In this document: in pieces, positions 28,890-61,604 of the stretch
Numbering within the stretch: position 1 is the stretch's first letter
Layout of the letters: each line of letters opens with the position of its first letter
Assembly (NCBI GenBank): GCA_017608025.1
Contig: JAFCGM010000002.1
Location: 6,250-70,249, forward strand
Source: Candidatus Pacearchaeota archaeon
GTDB taxonomy: Archaea > Nanobdellota > Nanobdellia > UBA10117 > JABICX01
Reading direction: 5' to 3'
DNA length: 64,000 nt
Made by a program: the position numbers and the translations under genes
The notes under the pieces: model-generated
Seen by the model: only the letters and a program-made list of their open reading frames with translations
What the model was told of the DNA's origin: nothing
The model's database searches: none

Positions 28890-29052
28890 CGAGCCCGGAG
28901 GGATTCGAACCCTCGATCTACAGCTAACTCCAGCACATTAAAGTCTTTTAGCTTATCTTTGCAGGCATCGCATTTTGTTTGCCTGCTCAAAGCGCCAGCC
29001 AATTTTGCGGCTGTAGGAGGCTGTCGCCCTATCCAGACTAGGCTACGGGCCC
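28890..29052 (-). tRNA. tRNA-Arg(CCT) with 88-nt intron at 37/38; the intron carries a family-A repeat module
   Basis: Acceptor GGGCCCG/CGGGCTC. Anticodon stem ACAGC/GCTGT with loop CTCCTA^A. T-arm GAGGG-TTCGAAT-CCCTC. Intron contains CAGCCG-CAAAAT-TGGCTG plus a long stem. Confidence 0.65.
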
Positions 29053-30221: not shown

Positions 30222-30340
30222 AGCGCCTGGGGAGATTTGAACTCCCGACATCTTGCTTTCTCGTTTTTTCTGTTAATATTTTTGCGCGAAGCAGAAACGA
30301 GTTACGAGGCAAGCGCTCTACCAGACTGAGCTACAGACGC
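30222..30340 (-). tRNA. tRNA-Thr(CGT) with ~46-nt intron
   Basis: Acceptor GCGTCTG/CAGGCGC. D-arm GCTC-AGTCTGGTA-GAGC. Anticodon stem CTTGC/GCAAG with loop CTCGTAA. T-arm GGGAG-TTCAAAT-CTCCC. Confidence 0.75.
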
Positions 30341-32096: not shown

Positions 32097-32206
32097 TGTA
32101 TTATAAAAATATATATAATGGTTTATATAATTTGTTGAAAAAATTTCTAAAAGTTTCATCAAAAATAAAAGGAAATATTTATAAATCGCATATTTTACTT
32201 AGATTT

Positions 32207-32316
32207 TAGCGGTCATAGCCCAGGGGTTCACCTGTTCCCATTTCGAACACAGAAGTTAAGCCCTGGTACGTTCCCGGTTGTACTGCATTTATGTGGGAAT
32301 CCGGGAAAGCTGCTAC
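32207..32316 (+). rRNA. rrf: 5S rRNA (stand-alone, not linked to 16S/23S in this window)
   Basis: GCGGTCATAGCCCAGGGGTTCACCTGTTCCCATTTCGAACACAGAAGTTAAGCCC... with terminal helix I pairing, followed by T6. Confidence 0.8.
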
Positions 32317-32317
32317 T

Positions 32318-32370
32318 TTTTTAGAAAAAGCGGCTAGGACTGCGTCTAAGGCGGCTACGCCTTCTGCGGA
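32318..32370 (-). ncRNA. Candidate small RNA or conserved element, family D copy 2
   Basis: Second copy of the family-D 53-mer, directly after the 5S terminator. Followed by the palindrome gaaacttttggaaaaagtttc also found at the tRNA-Leu 5' flank. Confidence 0.3.
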
Positions 32371-34709: not shown

Positions 34710-35894
34710 TCATTCATACTTTAAAGCGTCAGTGGGTTTCAGTTTGGCTGCTTTATATGCTGGCAGTGCTCCAGATGCTGCTCCGACAATTGCTGCAAAT
34801 AATATGCTTGTAATTATAATAGTTGGATTTATATAAACATTAAAATGAAATGGAAATGAAGAAGAAAATACTTCCATTGACTTTGCAAGAAGAGTTCCAA
34901 GAAAAGCTCCGATTGCTCCTCCGAGAAGGCCGAAAATTGCTGATTCAATCAGGAAAATCATCATAATATCTTTTCTTCCAGCGCCGATTGCCTTCATTAT
35001 TCCTATTTCTTTTGTTCTTTCAAGAACTGCAGTATACATTGTGTTCATTATTCCTATGCTTCCAACAAGGAGAGATATTGCAGCAACACCAACAAGAACA
35101 AAATTGATTATTCCCAGAATTGAATTTACTTGCTCAAGAATGTCTGCAGAAGTCATTACAATTAAGTCATCATCATTTCTTGCTCTTTTAATTTTTAGTT
35201 CAGCCTTATCTGCAACAGTCTCCACATCAAGCCCACTTCTTACTAATGCAGATATTGCGGCAATTTCATCTTTGCCTGAAATTTCAATTAGGTCGTCGTC
35301 AGAAACATAAACCTGCATATCGTCCTGAGAGCTTCCAATTTCCTCGAGAATTCCCACAACAACATATTTTTCTCCGTTTAAGTAAACTCTATTTTTAACA
35401 TGAATATCTTCATCAAAAATTTCATGAGCAACCAAATGTCCAAGCACTACTGATCTAGAATCCCCTTTTTCAATCCAGTGCCCATCGATTAATTCAAGCC
35501 CCATTTTCTTCAAAAGGTCAGGGTTACTAAGTTCAAAAGAGGCTGCTGTAACATATGCTTCATTGTCGTGAAATTCAATTTTTGCAGAAGTTACTCTTGT
35601 AGGTATTATTTCTTCAATTTCAGGCATTGACTGCAGGGTGCTTACATCTTTTTCAGTTATTATTTCTCCTCCAAAATTCATTGAACTCATCATGTTCTTT
35701 GGAGTTATAAAAATCATATTTGTGCCAAAGGATTCAAACTGCTCTTCAATTGATTGAGAAAGGGACTGGCTTAAGGTGAGAAGAGAAGTTATAGCAGCAA
35801 TTCCAATAATAATTCCAATAACAGTAAGCCAGCTGCGAAGCTTTCTATGTGAAATGCTTCTCAAAGCTAACCAGACATATTCAAGTATTTGCAT
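34710..35894 (-). CDS. ABC transporter permease, FtsX/MacB-like
   Basis: N-terminal TM helix, large extracytoplasmic domain, C-terminal 3-TM FtsX fold. Confidence 0.8.
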   Translation of the reverse strand: MQILEYVWLALRSISHRKLRSWLTVIGIIIGIAAITSLLTLSQSLSQSIEEQFESFGTNMIFITPKNMMSSMNFGGEIITEKDVSTLQSMPEIEEIIPTRVTSAKIEFHDNEAYVTAASFELSNPDLLKKMGLELIDGHWIEKGDSRSVVLGHLVAHEIFDEDIHVKNRVYLNGEKYVVVGILEEIGSSQDDMQVYVSDDDLIEISGKDEIAAISALVRSGLDVETVADKAELKIKRARNDDDLIVMTSADILEQVNSILGIINFVLVGVAAISLLVGSIGIMNTMYTAVLERTKEIGIMKAIGAGRKDIMMIFLIESAIFGLLGGAIGAFLGTLLAKSMEVFSSSFPFHFNVYINPTIIITSILFAAIVGAASGALPAYKAAKLKPTDALKYE

Positions 35895-36842
35895 TTATTT
35901 TTTCAGCATTTTCTTTTTTCTTATTCTTCTATAAATGAAGAATCCTGTTACTGCAATTACTGCAAACAAAAAATATATTCCATATGGCGCTGGTTTTTGG
36001 GCTAAACCATATTTGTATAGGTCTTTCTGAGAATACACGCGAATATCTATTGTCTGCTCATCCATGTAACTTCTACTGTTTGCATCAGTATATTCAAGTG
36101 TAAATGGAAGAGTTATTATTTTAGTTTCAGGATTTTTTGAATCTGATTTAAAATAAATGTCAAAAACTGCAGTTTCAAAATCATCTGACTCAAGTTCGCC
36201 AACATAAACTTCGTGCGGTGAAAGAACAATGTATTCATCTGTTTCATCAAGTGTTATTGTCAGGTATTTTGTATTTAGTGAGCCTTTATTTACAATGTTT
36301 GTTGTAATTCTTGATTTCTTGTTAAATGATACAGAATCCAAATCTTCAATTCCCACATCAACCCTTGGCTCTCCACCAGTTTTCACTGTTATTGTCACAG
36401 ATGTTTTTTTCATTTCTTTTTCACATTCGCTGTCGCTACATGAAATAAATTCAAGAGAATAATCTCCTGCTTTTGTGTTCTCATTTACAAAAAGCCTGTA
36501 ATCAAGAAGCTTATTCGAATTTGTTCCGATGATTCCTGTGCTTTTTATTGAATCTTCTCCCGGAACAAGGGAAAACGGATATTCTGGATTTACTTTTATG
36601 TATGCATTATCCAATTGCTCATTTCCAATATTCTGGACAGATATCCAAACGCGCAGAGTGTTGTCTGGCTCAGCAGGAACTGGGTCGTAGTCCTTAAGCA
36701 CAACCTTAACATCTGCATTTTCAGCTACAAGGGCCATTGCCGCAAACGGAACTATTACTAAAATTGTAAAAAGTGCGAAAAGCACTTTAATTGCTTTTTT
36801 CATTTTCAACTCTCCCATCTTTAAGATAAAACACTTTCTCAT
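35895..36842 (-). CDS. Exported protein with C-terminal membrane anchor (ABC-transporter-associated)
   Basis: Signal-like N-terminus, beta-rich body, C-terminal TM helix plus RRIRKKK. Co-transcribed with the permease and ATPase. Confidence 0.4.
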   Translation of the reverse strand: MRKCFILKMGELKMKKAIKVLFALFTILVIVPFAAMALVAENADVKVVLKDYDPVPAEPDNTLRVWISVQNIGNEQLDNAYIKVNPEYPFSLVPGEDSIKSTGIIGTNSNKLLDYRLFVNENTKAGDYSLEFISCSDSECEKEMKKTSVTITVKTGGEPRVDVGIEDLDSVSFNKKSRITTNIVNKGSLNTKYLTITLDETDEYIVLSPHEVYVGELESDDFETAVFDIYFKSDSKNPETKIITLPFTLEYTDANSRSYMDEQTIDIRVYSQKDLYKYGLAQKPAPYGIYFLFAVIAVTGFFIYRRIRKKKMLKK

Positions 36843-39009
36843 CTCGAGCTAATTTTTCGAAACGAGAATCGTGAGTTACGATTATTAATGTCTTATTTTT
36901 GTTTTTCCACAAATCAATTAAAATCTTCACAATCTTTTTTCCTGTTTTTGAATCAAGATTTCCTGTTGGCTCATCAGCAAGAATTATTTCTGGATCGTTT
37001 GCAAGAGAGCGGGCAATTGCAACTCTTTGTTGCTCTCCGCCAGACATTTCAGAAGGAAGATGATTTTTTCTGTGCTCAAGGCCAACTATATCCAAAAGCT
37101 CTGATGCTCTTTTAATTCGCTCTTCTTTAGATATATTCTGAAAGACCATTGTAAGAGCAACATTTTCAATTGCAGTAAGGCTTTGAATCAAGTTGAATTT
37201 CTGAAATACAAATCCTATTTTGCTTCCACGAATTTGTGCAAGCTCTGACTCTTCAAGAGAGGAAATGTCTTTTCCATTAAGATATATTTTGCCTTTTGTT
37301 GGAACATCAAGGCATCCAATCATGTTCATTGCTGTAGAATTATGAACAATAAACTCATTTGCTATAAAATTATCTGCACCAGGAACAGTTATGTCATAAA
37401 CTGTTGTCTTTTTATTTATTTTTTTGACTGCAATAACCTTATCCCAAAAAATATCTGAGTCGATTAACGCAGAAAGTTTATCTGTATTGATTTTGTTTTC
37501 TGAAAGAAGATTATTAATCAATTTTAATTTATTCACTGAAGGATTAATTCTTTTAGACTCATATGGATTAAGAACTTTATGAATTCTTCTTGATACTTTT
37601 ACTTTAGACTCTCTTCTAACTTTCTGTAATAATTCTCCACAAGGAATTACATCTACATTCGTATTCTCTTTGTTTTTTAAGTGGCTAAGAAGCCTTTTTT
37701 TCTTATCTGATGAAATAAAGCCAATGTGCTTCTCATACAATTTAAGATTGTTCAATCCAGAAATAGATAATAAATAATAAAATCTATTTGTTTTTTTATT
37801 AAATTTTTTGGGGAGTCTAGAAACAATTCCATACCTCAGAAGCAAATAATTTAATTGAGTGATAAGGTCTTTGCTTGCAAGAGTTATTGCTACTTCTTTT
37901 TTGTTTTTTGAAACATAACCATCACAATCAAACAATGCCCTAATAAAAGCAGCAATTTCTTTGTTAGAACATCTAAAAACAAATTCCGGCAGTTTTATTT
38001 TTCTTGATTTAAGATTTAGAGGAAAATTAAATATTTTATTGAAAAAAATAAGTAAGACCTTATTATTAACAGCTAATCTTGTATCCATAAATTTTTTTGC
38101 ATCAACTTCAAAAATTCGATTTACTAAATAAGAAAATCTCTCATTTATTTTTGGGTCTAAATTTGTAAATTTTATTCCATCCTTATCTAAATTTCCATCT
38201 CCTGCAATAAAGCCATATAGCTCCATTAAATCTTTAGAAATCTTTTTCGGCATTCTTACTTTATTGTGCGAACCTGCAGGAGTTATATAAAAATTACACT
38301 TATATTCAGAAATATCTGTACCACAGTAATCCATAATTTTCTTAAAATTCTCCAATGAAATATTATTATTATGTTTCCAAGCATCATAACTAAAGTAATT
38401 AAATTTCAGTTTCTTGCATAATTCCTTTCCAGAAATCTTTGAATTTTTGAGAAGTTTTCGGATTAATTTGCTTGAATCAAAGAGATATAATCTTTTGTTT
38501 GCACTTGCAAGTTTTAGCAAATCAATTTCTTGTTTTTTTGGTTTTGTATTTATTTTTCTTGCTGTGGCAACAAAAATTCCTTTTTTAAGATTTGTTGCGC
38601 GAATTTCACTGAAGCCATTAGAATCTAAAGTGAAAAAGGGATGTTCTGGAGTACTTACTATTTTTTTGCCTGAAGAAGTTGTAATTTCATAAATCTGATT
38701 CGCTTCTCGTTTATAAAAATCAGAGACTCTGAAAGGTTTAATTTTATTGGATTTTCTATCTAATGCAAGAACTTTATATTTCTTATATTTTCTTTCAAAA
38801 TCTTTTAGATTTATTAAAGAGCCATCTTCCAAAAACAATTTAGTGTCTCCAGTAAGGCATTTTCCACTGCCTGATGGGCCCATTATAACAACAAAATCTC
38901 CTTGATTTACTTTAAGGCTTAGGCCTCGGAGTGCTGGAACTTCCACTGCACCCATTTTATAAATCTTCCAAGCATCTTTGATTTTAATAAGTGTTTTTGA
39001 GGAAGTCAT
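36787..39009 (-). CDS. ABC transporter ATP-binding protein (MacB/LolD-type) interrupted by a 507-aa intein
   Basis: Extein N-part ends GPSGSGK, then intein CLTGDTK...IVHN, then extein resumes [16 protein letters not shown]-like SGGEQQR, Walker B ILADEPT and H-loop all present. Confidence 0.85.
37339..38859 (-). other. Intein with LAGLIDADG homing-endonuclease domain, inserted in the Walker A P-loop (GSGK^ST)
   Basis: Block A Cys1 (CLTGDTKL), LAGLIDADG pair [11 protein letters not shown] / [12 protein letters not shown], terminal HN followed by +1 Ser. Confidence 0.8.
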
Positions 39010-39315: not shown

Positions 39316-40692
39316 ATGCTAGGCAAACTTTCTCTAATCGGATTAATTGTTGCTATTTGTGGATTTGCACTAATGTATTTAAGGCTTTTTCCGCAATTTT
39401 CTATTATTATTGCACTAATTGGTGGTGGGATTGCTGTTTTTTCTGTTGTTGCATGGATAATAAAGCACAATTCTCAAAAGATAGATGTGGACTTTAAAGA
39501 CAGTATGTTAAGCAAAACATTTGAAACCGAAGAAAAAGGATTAAAAAGAATTTTCAAGTGGGCTGCAAGAGATCGAGGAAATTTAAGAATTCTTTCAAAA
39601 GAAAGCAGAAGCATTGGTGATGATTTGTCTAGCGCTTCAAAGGAAGTGGAAAAAGAAAAGCAGGATGCTTTGGAAAAAATTGAAGAAATAAAAGAAATTG
39701 ATGCTAAAATTAATGAAATTAATAATAAAATAAAAAGTGCTGCTGAAAATGGATTTGAAGGAAATGCTGTTAAATCTCTTCAGGAAGAAAAAGAAAAATT
39801 ATTGGAGAAAAGAAAAAATCTTGCTAGAGCATATGAAAAAGAAGTTAGTGAATTTAAAGAAGCAAAGGAAGAACGCCTTGAGAAAGTCAAAGAAATTTTA
39901 AAAAAACTACAGCAATTCAGGCAAAAAATAAATACATTTGAAACAAAATTTGATATTCATTCAAAAAAAATTGTTAGTCTTGGAAATAAATTTTTGGGCA
40001 TAAATTCAGAAAAAAGTGCTGAAGATTTGAAAAAAGAAATATCAAAAAAATTGAGGCAAGAGCAAGAAGATGCTATTTCCCAATTAAAAAACTCTCGCGG
40101 AATTAAAAAATTTCTAAAAGACAAAAACATATCAAAACTGTCTGACCTTGCTACCTTGAATATTGGCAGGGTTAATGATGATTTTGAAAACATAGGAATA
40201 AAAGCAAAAAATATTGTGGAAAATTCAAAAAAATATTTTGAAATAATTCATCCGCAAGCTGAACAATTTTCAAAAAATGCTGTTATTTTTTCAAAAGCTC
40301 TTGACAAACAAAAAGAAAGAATTGTTGATGTTGAAAATCTCTGTGAAGAAATTGTAAAAAATCCGCAGATGGCAACTGAAGAAAATTTTCAGAAAATAAC
40401 AAAAGGAATGGATATAATTGGAAACTCTTTGAAAGTTCTGAGCAAAAGGGAAAAAATCCAAGTAAAACTTATTGGCCAAATTCTTCGCCTTAATAAAGAA
40501 ATGGGGGCTACGTTTGATGAAGATTTTTCAAATTTAAAAAAATATCTAAATGATATTGTAAAAGTTAGTGAAAAAACTATTATGAGAGCTATTGCTAAAA
40601 AGGATATTAAAGAAGGTGCAATTGATTCAAAAAGTCCGAGAGATAATTTAGATGTTAAAAAAGCAATTGATGAAGGTCTTGAAATAACTTAA
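39316..40692 (+). CDS. Membrane-anchored coiled-coil protein
   Basis: Two N-terminal TM helices, then ~400 aa of K/E-rich heptad-like sequence. Confidence 0.4.
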   Translation: MLGKLSLIGLIVAICGFALMYLRLFPQFSIIIALIGGGIAVFSVVAWIIKHNSQKIDVDFKDSMLSKTFETEEKGLKRIFKWAARDRGNLRILSKESRSIGDDLSSASKEVEKEKQDALEKIEEIKEIDAKINEINNKIKSAAENGFEGNAVKSLQEEKEKLLEKRKNLARAYEKEVSEFKEAKEERLEKVKEILKKLQQFRQKINTFETKFDIHSKKIVSLGNKFLGINSEKSAEDLKKEISKKLRQEQEDAISQLKNSRGIKKFLKDKNISKLSDLATLNIGRVNDDFENIGIKAKNIVENSKKYFEIIHPQAEQFSKNAVIFSKALDKQKERIVDVENLCEEIVKNPQMATEENFQKITKGMDIIGNSLKVLSKREKIQVKLIGQILRLNKEMGATFDEDFSNLKKYLNDIVKVSEKTIMRAIAKKDIKEGAIDSKSPRDNLDVKKAIDEGLEIT

Positions 40693-41950: not shown

Positions 41951-42937
41951 TTAAAACGCCTGTTTATAGTCAGGAGCGTCTCTTGGCGAAAAATCAATCT
42001 CAATATCAAAAGAAAAAATAGCTTTCACCAAAATACAAATATTATAAACCAAACATTTCAAATACAATTCATTTACTTGAGATTCAAAGTTCTTAAAATA
42101 TAATTTAGCACCAAACTTACGCTTTAATGCACTGAAGCTTGCTTCTACATTAGACCTTTTGTGATAGTGCTTATAGAATTTACTTCTATTCTTACGGAAC
42201 AGTTCCAATGAAGTTTTCCAAACACCGCTTTTTCTCTTCATTCCACAATTACTTCTGAAAGGAATATATGGAACGCCACCATAATGATGAACCGTCTCTA
42301 AATTATGCCTAGAAGAATATGCTTTATCTCCTAATACTTCATCAATCTTGAAATTCTCAGCAGTTCTTGAAACTAACTTATCAAATTCAGGAGAATCATG
42401 ACATTCACCTGTAGTAATTTCAAGAGAAGTAATTACATTCGTAAAAATCCCACACATTGCATGACATTTAACAAATTTATGCCTGTCATTATATCCGACT
42501 CTTGAATCAAACCATCTCTCATAACTATTAGTTGAGAATCCAGTCGAATCAACTGCAAACCTAGTCTCCAAGTATTTCAAAGGCATAGCAGACATCATAA
42601 GTAAATAATTCAATGTTGGGGTCAAAGATTTTCTTCTCATGTAGTCCGTAACAGAAGAATGATGTGGGACTTTTTTAATATATCCCATATCTTTGAGAAA
42701 CCATAATTGAGATGTAAGTGTTCTTGAAGGCATCCCAAAATATAACTTCATAGCTAGGCAGAAGATTACATCCTTTTGATTGTGCATTGGACGACCTTTT
42801 TTCTTTATTGGTTCCGATACAGTTTCATCCAATAGATTTCTGAGGATTTCAACAAAGAGTCTACCTTCCTTAGTTTGCGCTTTATTGTAGGAAGTCCAGT
42901 CTCTATCTTTTGTGAATTCTTTAATTTTTGATTGCAT
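41951..42937 (-). mobile_element. IS5/IS4-superfamily DDE transposase gene (IS ends not resolved)
   Basis: DDE_Tnp_1-like blocks FAVDSTGF, LGDKAYSS, EASFSALKRKFG. Confidence 0.7.
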
Positions 42938-60149: not shown

Positions 60150-61604
60150 TTAACCTTTTACAACAACAAAAGGAATTAATCGAGCTACTTTTTTCGCAAT
60201 TCCTGTTTCATGCATAACTTTTATTACTTCCTCAACATCCTTGTACGCTTGCGGTGCTTCCTCAAGCAGTCCTTTTTTGTCGTGGCTGAGTACAATTATG
60301 TTTTTGGATTTCAACTCTGCTGTTAATGACTGGGAGTTTATTTTTCTTTTTGCTGCGTTGCGAGAGAGAATGCGGCCAGCTCCGTGGCATGCTGAGCCAA
60401 ATGTTTCATCCATTGCTTTTTGAGTTCCCTTAAGAATGTAAGAAGCAGTTCCCATTGTTCCTCCAATTAAAACAGGTTGTCCGATTTCTCTGTATTTTTC
60501 TGGAATTTCAGTTCTGCCCGGTCCAAAAGCGCGAGTTGAGCCTTTTCGATGGACAAGAATTTTTTTGGTTTTTCCATTTATAGTGTGCTCTTCAATTTTG
60601 GCAGTGTTGTGCGCAACTTCATAAAGAGTTTTTATTTTTTCAGGCTTTAAATTGAAAGCTTGTGCAAGAGTTTTGCGTGCAAGATGAGCAATAACCTGCC
60701 GGTTTGCAAATGCGCAATTTATTCCGGCCTTAACTGCAGAGAAATACTTTTTCCCTTCTGGAGAATTTATTGGAGCACAAACCAACTCCTTGTCTGGAAT
60801 TTTGATTTTGTATTTTCTAACTGCTTTTGCAAGGTCTTTTGTGTAATCCATTCCAATTTGATGCCCCAGGGCTCGGGAGCCGCAGTGAAAAGAAATTAGC
60901 ACCTGATTTTCCTTAATTCCATAGGCTTGTGCTGCTTTTTTATCAAAAATTTTATCAACCACTTGCAGTTCAATATAGTGATTTCCAGAACCAAGAGTTC
61001 CTGTTTGGGAAAACTGGCGCTGCTTTGCTCGCTGGGAAACTGCTTTTGGGTCTGCTCCTGAGATTTTGCCGTTTTCCTCAATAAATTCAAGGTCTTGTTT
61101 TATTCCATAACCTTTTTTTATTGCAAATTCAGCACCTTCAACAAGAAGATTATCAATTTCATTTAAAGAAAGCTTAATTTTTCCTCCAACACCCAAGCCT
61201 GCAGGAATATTGTCATAAAGCAGTTTGGCAATTTCCTTTTCTCGGCCATTAAAATCAGATTTTTTAAGAGGTGTTGCCATTGTGCGAACGCCGCAATTTA
61301 TGTCAAAACCAATGCCACCCATTACAATTACGCCTTTTTCCAAGTCAAATGCTGCTACTCCGCCAATTGGAAATCCATAACCCACATGAATATCTGGATT
61401 TGCAATTACTGGCTTTTCAACTCCAGGCAGTTTTGCTATGTTCTTTAATTGCTGAAGAGAGTTCCATTCTGAATTTTCACTATTTAGCAAGCTCTTGATT
61501 TTCCTGCTAGCGTAAATCCTAGCTGGAACTGCCATTTTCTCTTCCTGGAACTCCCAGACATGTTTTCTTATTTGTTTCATCTTTCCACATCTTTGGTTTT
61601 TCAT
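60150..61604 (-). CDS. rtcB: RNA-splicing ligase RtcB (tRNA ligase)
   Basis: GYGFPIGGVAAFD, DINCGVR, HCGSRALGH, HNTAK and GTM motifs. Confidence 0.9.
   Translation of the reverse strand: MKNQRCGKMKQIRKHVWEFQEEKMAVPARIYASRKIKSLLNSENSEWNSLQQLKNIAKLPGVEKPVIANPDIHVGYGFPIGGVAAFDLEKGVIVMGGIGFDINCGVRTMATPLKKSDFNGREKEIAKLLYDNIPAGLGVGGKIKLSLNEIDNLLVEGAEFAIKKGYGIKQDLEFIEENGKISGADPKAVSQRAKQRQFSQTGTLGSGNHYIELQVVDKIFDKKAAQAYGIKENQVLISFHCGSRALGHQIGMDYTKDLAKAVRKYKIKIPDKELVCAPINSPEGKKYFSAVKAGINCAFANRQVIAHLARKTLAQAFNLKPEKIKTLYEVAHNTAKIEEHTINGKTKKILVHRKGSTRAFGPGRTEIPEKYREIGQPVLIGGTMGTASYILKGTQKAMDETFGSACHGAGRILSRNAAKRKINSQSLTAELKSKNIIVLSHDKKGLLEEAPQAYKDVEEVIKVMHETGIAKKVARLIPFVVVKG

Follow-up and report, generated by a model that had tools for sequence, protein, structure and literature searches.

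A probable homing intein interrupts the Walker A motif of a MacB/FtsX-type ABC ATPase in a DPANN archaeon

The window analysed here, a 64,000-nucleotide stretch of contig JAFCGM010000002.1 from a small, uncultivated Candidatus Pacearchaeota archaeon (assembly GCA_017608025.1), has as its longest open reading frame (ORF) the gene for an ATP-binding cassette (ABC) ATPase with what is almost certainly an in-frame intein—a 740-aa precursor plus stop codon, read without interruption on the minus strand (36787..39009). An identical protein exists in public sequence data (P0001). The N-extein (aa 1-50; 38860..39009, minus) is colinear with residues 1-44 of the Methanocaldococcus jannaschii ABC domain MJ0796 and has the Walker A sequence GPSGSGK as its last motif. 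The insert (507 aa, precursor aa 51-557; 37339..38859, minus) runs from Cys1 to a terminal His-Asn pair and was identified by Pfam and NCBIfam matches, an AlphaFold2 model and Foldseek, while the C-extein (aa 558-740; 36790..37338, minus) begins with the +1 Ser and carries the Q-loop, the signature MSGGEQQR, the Walker B motif ILADEPT and the H-switch VTHD. Walker A is interrupted between Lys50 and Ser, with junctions that read Lys50^C51 LTGDTKLF ... NEFIVH556 N557^S558 (here and below, a caret marks the insertion point). A preliminary description, made from the DNA letters, had placed a 507-aa insert at 37339-38859, at the GxxGxGK^(S/T) point of the P-loop, and had listed Cys1, two LAGLIDADG blocks, a terminal HN and a +1 Ser. 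Its coordinates and length are exact in the ORF translation, the junction falls at K50^C51 ... N557^S558, and each of the listed features, both quoted LAGLIDADG blocks included, was located in the sequence, in agreement with the alignment of homologues.

Searched on its own against Pfam, the insert matched Intein_splicing (E 1.6e-30, residues 16-507, the split form of match that is usual for large inteins) and LAGLIDADG_3 (E 6.2e-23). NCBIfam recognised its two ends separately, residues 1-77 as intein_Nterm (TIGR01445, E 3.4e-16) and residues 487-507 as intein_Cterm (TIGR01443, E 1.1e-5); the remaining NCBIfam matches were to the intein parts of models for intein-containing DnaB, RFC, IF2, V-ATPase, RNA polymerase, GyrA and RtcB. 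Reading the secondary structure of the predicted model, we divided the insert into five parts (residues 1-105, ~106-200, ~201-395, ~396-468 and 469-507), all on the minus strand. The N-terminal Hint (splicing) subdomain (aa 1-105; 38545..38859) starts with block A, CLTGDT, and includes block B, TPEH (T70 and H73; 38638..38652); it consists of beta strands in the model and, beside TIGR01445, draws matches to DnaB, RadA and CDC21 mini-inteins. It is followed by a first accessory helical region (aa 106-200; 38260..38544), with helices at residues 130-179 of the model and a conserved motif, DxW..NNIxL. Pfam returned a weak HTH_26 match here (residues 133-185, E 4.5e-4, under the cut-off), and the region is possibly a helix-turn-helix. 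The LAGLIDADG endonuclease core (aa 201-395; 37675..38259) contains the LAGLIDADG_3 match, aligns to the homing endonuclease domain of the Thermococcus litoralis VMA intein (TliVMA) and matches the folds of I-DmoI and I-Tsp061I. Its motif 1, LYGFIAGDG (38194..38220), holds the catalytic D221 and motif 2, IRALFDCDG (37918..37944), the catalytic D313; by alignment the two motifs correspond to blocks C and E in TliVMA, an active enzyme. A second accessory helical region (aa 396-468; 37456..37674; helices at 408-466 in the model), which is conserved in homologues and has a counterpart in the SMC P-loop intein L015 discussed below, leads to the C-terminal Hint subdomain (aa 469-507; 37339..37455), with block F, the block G sequence FIVHN and the TIGR01443 match.

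The AlphaFold2 model, built on an alignment from a profile of 12 homologues, had a predicted local distance difference test score (pLDDT) of 90.5 and a predicted template modelling score (pTM) of 0.90. Over residues 209-367 its helices alternate with strand pairs, as in the pseudo-dimeric alpha-beta-beta-alpha-beta-beta-alpha LAGLIDADG fold. When the model was compared with the PDB by Foldseek, the top matches were exclusively inteins and LAGLIDADG enzymes—TliVMA first (7qss, E 1.8e-27, template modelling (TM) score 0.76 on the target), then PI-PkoII (2cw7, TM 0.71 on the query), PI-PfuI (1dq3), PhoVMA, PI-SceI, mini-inteins, and I-DmoI and I-Tsp061I, the last two at TM 0.63-0.67 on the target. 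Likewise, among solved structures the 12-homologue profile found the V-ATPase inteins 7qss (E 2.7e-40) and 7qsu as its best matches, at E ~1e-40, followed by the DnaB, CDC21, TFIIB and RadA mini-inteins, PI-PkoII and PI-PfuI. Pfam, NCBIfam and the structure model are concordant on the identity of the insert, and we consider it close to certain that it is a canonical class 1 intein carrying a double-motif LAGLIDADG endonuclease domain. It also differs from its surroundings in base composition: its G+C content (GC) is 27.0%, with 18.9% at third codon positions (GC3), against 35.6% and 24.9% for the exteins, and lies under that of all 15 long ORFs of the window (mean 34.1 ± 2.8%, minimum 29.0%).

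Minus the insert, the host is a 233-aa protein in which Walker A, the Q-loop, the LSGGQ signature, Walker B, the D-loop and the H-switch follow one another in canonical order. This spliced extein matched Pfam ABC_tran (E 2.6e-34) and aligned end to end with MJ0796 (PDB 1f3o, 1l2t; E 2e-71), to which it is ~60% identical by eye, with all ABC motifs intact and no gap at the junction; the domains of MacB and LolD came next. The check proposed in the preliminary description, alignment of the extein with MacB/LolD homologues, thus gives a colinear result, the difference being that neither MJ0796 nor MacB nor LolD has an intein. The best NCBIfam models for the extein were LolD, DarD, MacB and FtsE, each under its equivalog cut-off; for the LolD equivalog TIGR02211 the score was 237.1 bits, and the cut-off of 307.75 was not reached. 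We know of no Lol pathway in archaea. The term “MacB/LolD-type ATPase” used in the preliminary description therefore stands as a family label, backed by the MJ0796, MacB and LolD alignments and by the permease gene described next, and fails as an identification of the host protein with LolD itself, given the score under the equivalog cut-off and the archaeal host.

Two further genes lie downstream on the minus strand. A 315-aa ORF with no Pfam family (35895..36842) overlaps the ATPase gene at its end, and syntenic loci keep this ORF in place (304-310 aa in L001 and L003); its product may be an uncharacterised third component of an archaeal MacB-type transporter. By eye, this product has hydrophobic stretches at both termini. 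The second gene (34710..35894) encodes a 394-aa permease with MacB_PCD (E 4.4e-27) and FtsX (E 3.1e-25) domains, which is the transporter partner of the ATPase; the same arrangement is found in L003.

The intein is not peculiar to this genome. The same ABC-plus-intein architecture occurs in 24 further protein clusters (full-length identity 46-55%), with fragments besides, and 11 GTDB species genomes carry the ABC intein with junctions GSGK^C…HN^ST. Every close relative carries the label Nanoarchaeota, Woesearchaeota or Pacearchaeota, and the intein closest to that of the window is ~53% identical. One copy (L014) lies on a 7-kb contig, CAYSWQ010000044.1, of a metagenome-assembled genome (MAG) labelled “uncultured Methanosarcinales”; because the contig is so short, a binning error is more likely than a true non-DPANN host. 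In an alignment of 25 full-length homologues the insertion point is identical, and Cys1, the block-B His (H73), D313, K334 (precursor numbering), H556, N557 and the +1 S558 are invariant (25/25). D221 is kept in 24/25, and the block-B Thr is present in at least 90%. The single loss of the first catalytic Asp is in P0017, which has GGG for GDG. Other invariant residues are S129, W161, N165, N166 and L169 in the first accessory region and W472, D473, D489, H506 and N507 in the C-terminal Hint subdomain. The preliminary description had suggested a new intein allele or insertion site. Host and allele do appear new in the literature covered; the same intein at the same site in ~25 protein clusters and 11 GTDB species genomes means that the allele family was already in the databases, unrecognised.

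A second insertion site was found in the same host family. In two woesearchaeal proteins (P0028, and P0029 with its 13 cluster members) Walker A is intact and an intein sits in the LSGGQ signature motif instead, with junctions of the form …SEL^S(I/V)… (SEL^SIGKDE…FHN^SGGQQQR). This intein begins with Ser1, is ~476-487 aa long and is 22% identical to the Walker A intein, and the exteins are ~60% identical. Inteins thus occupy two catalytic motifs within one small family of ATPases. We found no description of the signature-motif intein in the literature covered.

The spliced extein has its closest relatives among intein-free proteins. P0121 and P0122 share 83% identity with it and P0123 78%, followed by hundreds at 62-69%; the five closest (73-83%) all lack an intein, and in intein-bearing relatives the extein reaches only 56-65% identity to that of the window. 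Intein-free orthologues of the host number in the thousands. Two of them, L001 and L003, share the gene neighbourhood of the window and provide precise empty sites, with nothing between the two halves of the P-loop: the DNA reads …GGAAAA^TCAAC…, in the context …ATGGGGCCAAGTGGGAGTGGAAAA^TCAACTGCCATGAATATGATTGGA…. Gene order there runs from the wyosine radical-SAM gene (which L001, one of the two, also keeps) through hypothetical genes, the ABC ATPase and the 304-310-aa protein to the FtsX permease. From L001 and L003 we derived a candidate endonuclease target, ATGGGNCC....GG....GGNAAA^TCNAC....ATGAA. Within the window, tblastn with the intein and with the extein matched only their own locus and revealed no further intein and no paralogue of the ABC ATPase.

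Taking these results together, we think it very probable that the Walker A motif of this MacB/FtsX-type ATPase from a DPANN archaeon houses a full-length intein of class 1, within which a LAGLIDADG homing endonuclease is nested. The splicing steps that we propose follow established intein chemistry, and all residues that the standard pathway requires are conserved. The 740-aa precursor would be translated with a broken P-loop and without productive ATP binding; because the P-loop lysine and the Mg-binding serine stand 507 residues apart, it should not be a working ATPase. The two Hint halves would then fold together, Cys51 performing an N-S acyl shift at the Lys50-Cys51 bond and the thioester being handed to the side chain of Ser558. 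Cyclisation of Asn557, helped by His556, would release the intein, and an O-N shift would restore the peptide bond, leaving a 233-aa ATPase with the sequence GPSGSGK-STAMN and a free 507-aa intein. That the intein splices appears quite probable. Once free, the intein would act as a site-specific endonuclease through its two LAGLIDADG helices, each contributing one catalytic Asp, with the two helical accessory regions probably extending the contacts to DNA; intein-free alleles would be cut at ...GGNAAA^TCNAC... and repaired by copying the intein gene in (homing). On the endonuclease we are less firm, and on balance we lean towards its still being active, because it keeps both of the acidic residues that separate the active TliVMA from the decayed PhoVMA.

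Several observations weigh against an intact and mobile element of this kind. Pfam gave only one LAGLIDADG_3 stretch (301-380), motif 1 resting on the alignment to 7qss and on the fold, and both splicing and DNA cleavage are activities that we infer. The distribution of the intein counts in favour of the proposed element: among 153 exteins placed in a neighbour-joining tree, the 31 that carry the Walker A intein form 13 separate clades scattered among 120 intein-free orthologues (two more exteins have the signature-motif intein). This tree, however, is rough, built from 233 columns, and its intein-free sample was picked by similarity to the extein of the window. Distances between inteins and between exteins are correlated (r = 0.43, permutation p ~5e-4), which makes old vertical inheritance with repeated precise loss a possible alternative to ongoing homing. 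Among 300 allele pairs none has inteins clearly more alike than its exteins, the two are as similar in just one, and with the closest intein only ~53% identical, these pairs give no sign of recent transfer. Mean identity across alleles is 50% for the intein and 65% for the extein. Because the distances are correlated and the intein is as similar as the extein in only 1/300 pairs, the family looks old, mostly co-diverged with its hosts and evolving faster than they do, and its patchy distribution may be due as much to loss as to gain. The correlation of distances, the pair comparison and the low identity of the closest intein also speak for an intein that splices without being mobile, its endonuclease dead or lacking reachable empty targets, and that is inherited vertically since imprecise deletion would destroy an essential P-loop; P0017, minus its first catalytic Asp, shows that decay does happen in this intein family. 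Yet nearly all alleles keep both catalytic Asp residues, and no mini-intein derivative was seen among ~36 alleles. In column consensus the endonuclease core (0.68) is better conserved than the N-terminal Hint subdomain (0.62), with 0.58 and 0.59 for the first and second accessory regions, 0.71 for the C-terminal Hint subdomain and 0.70-0.75 for the exteins. Core and accessory regions that are kept about as well as the N-terminal splicing half, or better, are unexpected if the endonuclease is decaying (in PhoVMA, the Asp residues were lost and the intein shrank), and the intein-free state of the closest orthologues would require precise loss or independent gain. We consider an immobile intein possible but doubtful.

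The remaining explanations are less likely still, to differing degrees. An undescribed DPANN intein family might have reached the membrane-transport ABC ATPase at two independent sites, Walker A and LSGGQ, by ectopic P-loop jumps out of replication or chromosome ATPases (SMC or MCM, for example, which have nearly identical DNA at Walker A), perhaps to be kept as a conditional switch of the transporter. We regard this composite scenario as improbable; if true, it would offer a natural test case for homing endonucleases crossing between non-homologous genes. More doubtful again is co-option of the intein as a post-translational switch, in which splicing conditional on redox state, temperature or substrate gates the MacB-type ATPase. 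The P-loop position makes the precursor inactive, conditional splicing is on record for other ATPase inteins (RadA and DnaB) in the part of the literature covered, the whole intein is conserved over long divergence, and cysteines other than Cys1 are conserved (C312 invariant, C407 nearly so); but selfish mobility explains the conservation of endonuclease residues more simply, and because most orthologues, the closest included, manage without an intein, any regulatory role would be dispensable. An insertion domain specific to this ABC lineage, or a non-splicing Hint domain of the bacterial intein-like (BIL) type kept in the mature protein, would account for the in-frame position and for nothing more. 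A Lys/Ser split of Walker A that stayed in the protein would preclude nucleotide binding, the nucleophiles of both splice junctions and the final His-Asn pair are in place, the match to intein models and intein crystal structures is full-length, and orthologues lack precisely the insert. On the intein matches in Pfam and NCBIfam and the intein folds found by Foldseek, we rejected an insertion domain, to which we assign a negligible chance; the preliminary description, which had favoured Hint plus homing endonuclease over a normal ABC-ATPase insertion domain, was right in this respect. We put no higher the chance that assembly or binning joined a foreign intein to an ABC gene. The window is metagenome-like and the related sequences are mostly from MAGs, but independent projects yielded the same architecture and junctions in ~25 protein clusters and 11 GTDB genomes, no break interrupts the reading frame, and synteny on both sides matches intein-free relatives.

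Elsewhere in the window, whose GC is 33% and which encodes an archaea-specific editing domain of threonyl-tRNA synthetase (ThrRS) and a wyosine radical-SAM enzyme, the other long ORFs (SecY, ThrRS, RtcB and others) are intein-free. Among them is RtcB, a frequent intein host, present here as a 484-aa protein (60150..61604, minus) with a full-length Pfam match. Divergent from the ABC operon lies the gene for a 458-aa Lys/Glu-rich protein (39316..40692, plus), probably a coiled-coil, with an N-terminal membrane segment and no significant family; at this position relatives encode hypothetical proteins of 352-403 aa on the strand opposite the ABC gene. A second mobile element, a 328-aa DDE transposase (DDE_Tnp_1, E 4.2e-22; 41951..42937, minus), is found ~3 kb from the intein gene, past the wyosine radical-SAM gene with one 88-aa ORF between. 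Two Rfam tRNA matches of 163 and 119 nt (28890..29052 and 30222..30340, minus), against a model of 71 positions and uncalled by ARAGORN, are probably intron-containing archaeal tRNA genes, and a 5S rRNA gene lies at 32205..32318 (plus).

Inteins are known mainly from hosts in replication, repair and transcription/translation and from rotary or secretion ATPases. A conserved and apparently complete intein in a MacB/FtsX-type ATPase would extend this host range to membrane transport, and adds one more case for P-loops as intein hot spots. In full-text searches of part of the literature, and in the host tables and text of the main survey (PMC4760082), we found no description of a natural intein in an ABC-transporter ATPase; the full host list of that survey and InBase lay outside this coverage. 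The tables and text of the survey name no ABC transporter, in keeping with the remark in the preliminary description that MacB/LolD-type ATPases are not among the usual hosts. NCBIfam has no “intein-containing” model for an ABC-transporter ATPase, and the database names of ~30 family members never mention an intein. These ~30 public entries, of ~740-790 aa and called “hypothetical” or “ABC transporter ATP-binding protein”, are better read as ATPases of 225-290 aa plus an intein. Since MJ0796, to which the host is orthologous, is a classic model among ABC domains, both splicing and its effect on ATPase activity should be easy to assay, and the family supplies a new Cys1/Ser+1 intein along with an endonuclease that has two accessory regions and is a candidate rare cutter. 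Element type, insertion logic and domain plan are those of the textbook, and only the host appears new. What we describe is a well-known type of element in a new host and as a new allele, and the understanding of inteins itself is unchanged by it.

To place the intein among its relatives, we scanned 1.84 billion cluster representatives (50% identity) with HMMER at E ≤ 0.001, obtaining 7742 relatives. The ABC group contributed only two representatives, at E ~1e-150, and the next match stood at 1e-78 and 33% identity; judged by these scores, the ABC inteins are a tight group of their own. The next tier of hosts comprises MCM (P-loop and two other sites), VirB11/FlaI-type ATPases, SMC, SRP54/FtsY, DnaB, RadA, Topo VI-B, V-ATPase and a DEAD-box helicase, and many inteins of this tier have a GK^C…HN^S/T junction. 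We classified the hosts of the best 147 matches by regular expression, which left 39/147 as “other”, and among these best 147 no donor or sister host class stands out. A sister group could not be named because the nearest non-ABC inteins are all ~27-34% identical and about half of the classifiable ones (in MCM, T2SSE, SMC, SRP54, DnaB, RadA, Topo VI-B and DEAD hosts) sit at non-P-loop sites.

Among known systems, the nearest non-ABC relatives are the P-loop inteins of MCM (site a), VirB11/FlaI-type ATPases, SRP54/FtsY, DnaB (site b), RFC and DEAD-box proteins, which share the G-K^C ... H-N^S/T junction and are 27-34% identical over most of their length; they differ in having textbook intein hosts, with roles in replication, translation, targeting and secretion. 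Inteins cluster in P-loops according to the parts of the main survey covered here (PMC4760082), and it has been proposed (PMC10710043) that they pass from the P-loop of one protein to that of a non-homologous one. In this respect SMC deserves mention, with 11 representatives among the best 147 matches. The SMC P-loop intein of a Micrarchaeota MAG (L015:1501-3159; JACRGE010000076.1), with junctions GPNGSGK^C…HN^SNVIDAL, is homologous to the intein of the window over its whole length, both accessory regions included (28% identity, E 7e-58), and SMC is itself an ABC-class ATPase with a nearly identical Walker A (GPNGSGKS versus GPSGSGKS). SMC is a chromosome-maintenance protein, and its intein is no closer than those of MCM or T2SSE; because its P-loop is almost identical to that of ABC transporters, ectopic transfer from or to SMC inteins is conceivable. 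More distant are the Thermococcales ribonucleotide reductase inteins PI-PkoII (2cw7) and PI-PfuI (1dq3), which are likewise large archaeal inteins combining LAGLIDADG with extra DNA-binding domains, but which occupy another host at a non-P-loop site and are 17-18% identical.

The best solved match, by profile as well as by fold, remains TliVMA. VMA-b P-loop inteins combine HINT, homing endonuclease and accessory domain, and within this group TliVMA is an experimentally active endonuclease at the P-loop site whereas PhoVMA is inactive and lacks the Asp residues of blocks C and E (PMC8966425). TliVMA and the intein of the window have in common the Walker A P-loop site, a split Hint domain, a double-motif LAGLIDADG endonuclease with a catalytic Asp in both motifs, and an accessory domain. 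They differ in host, a rotary ATPase for TliVMA and a transport ABC ATPase here, and share ~21% identity in the Foldseek alignment; at 507 aa, compared with 429 aa for TliVMA, the intein of the window has accessory helical regions both before and after its endonuclease core.

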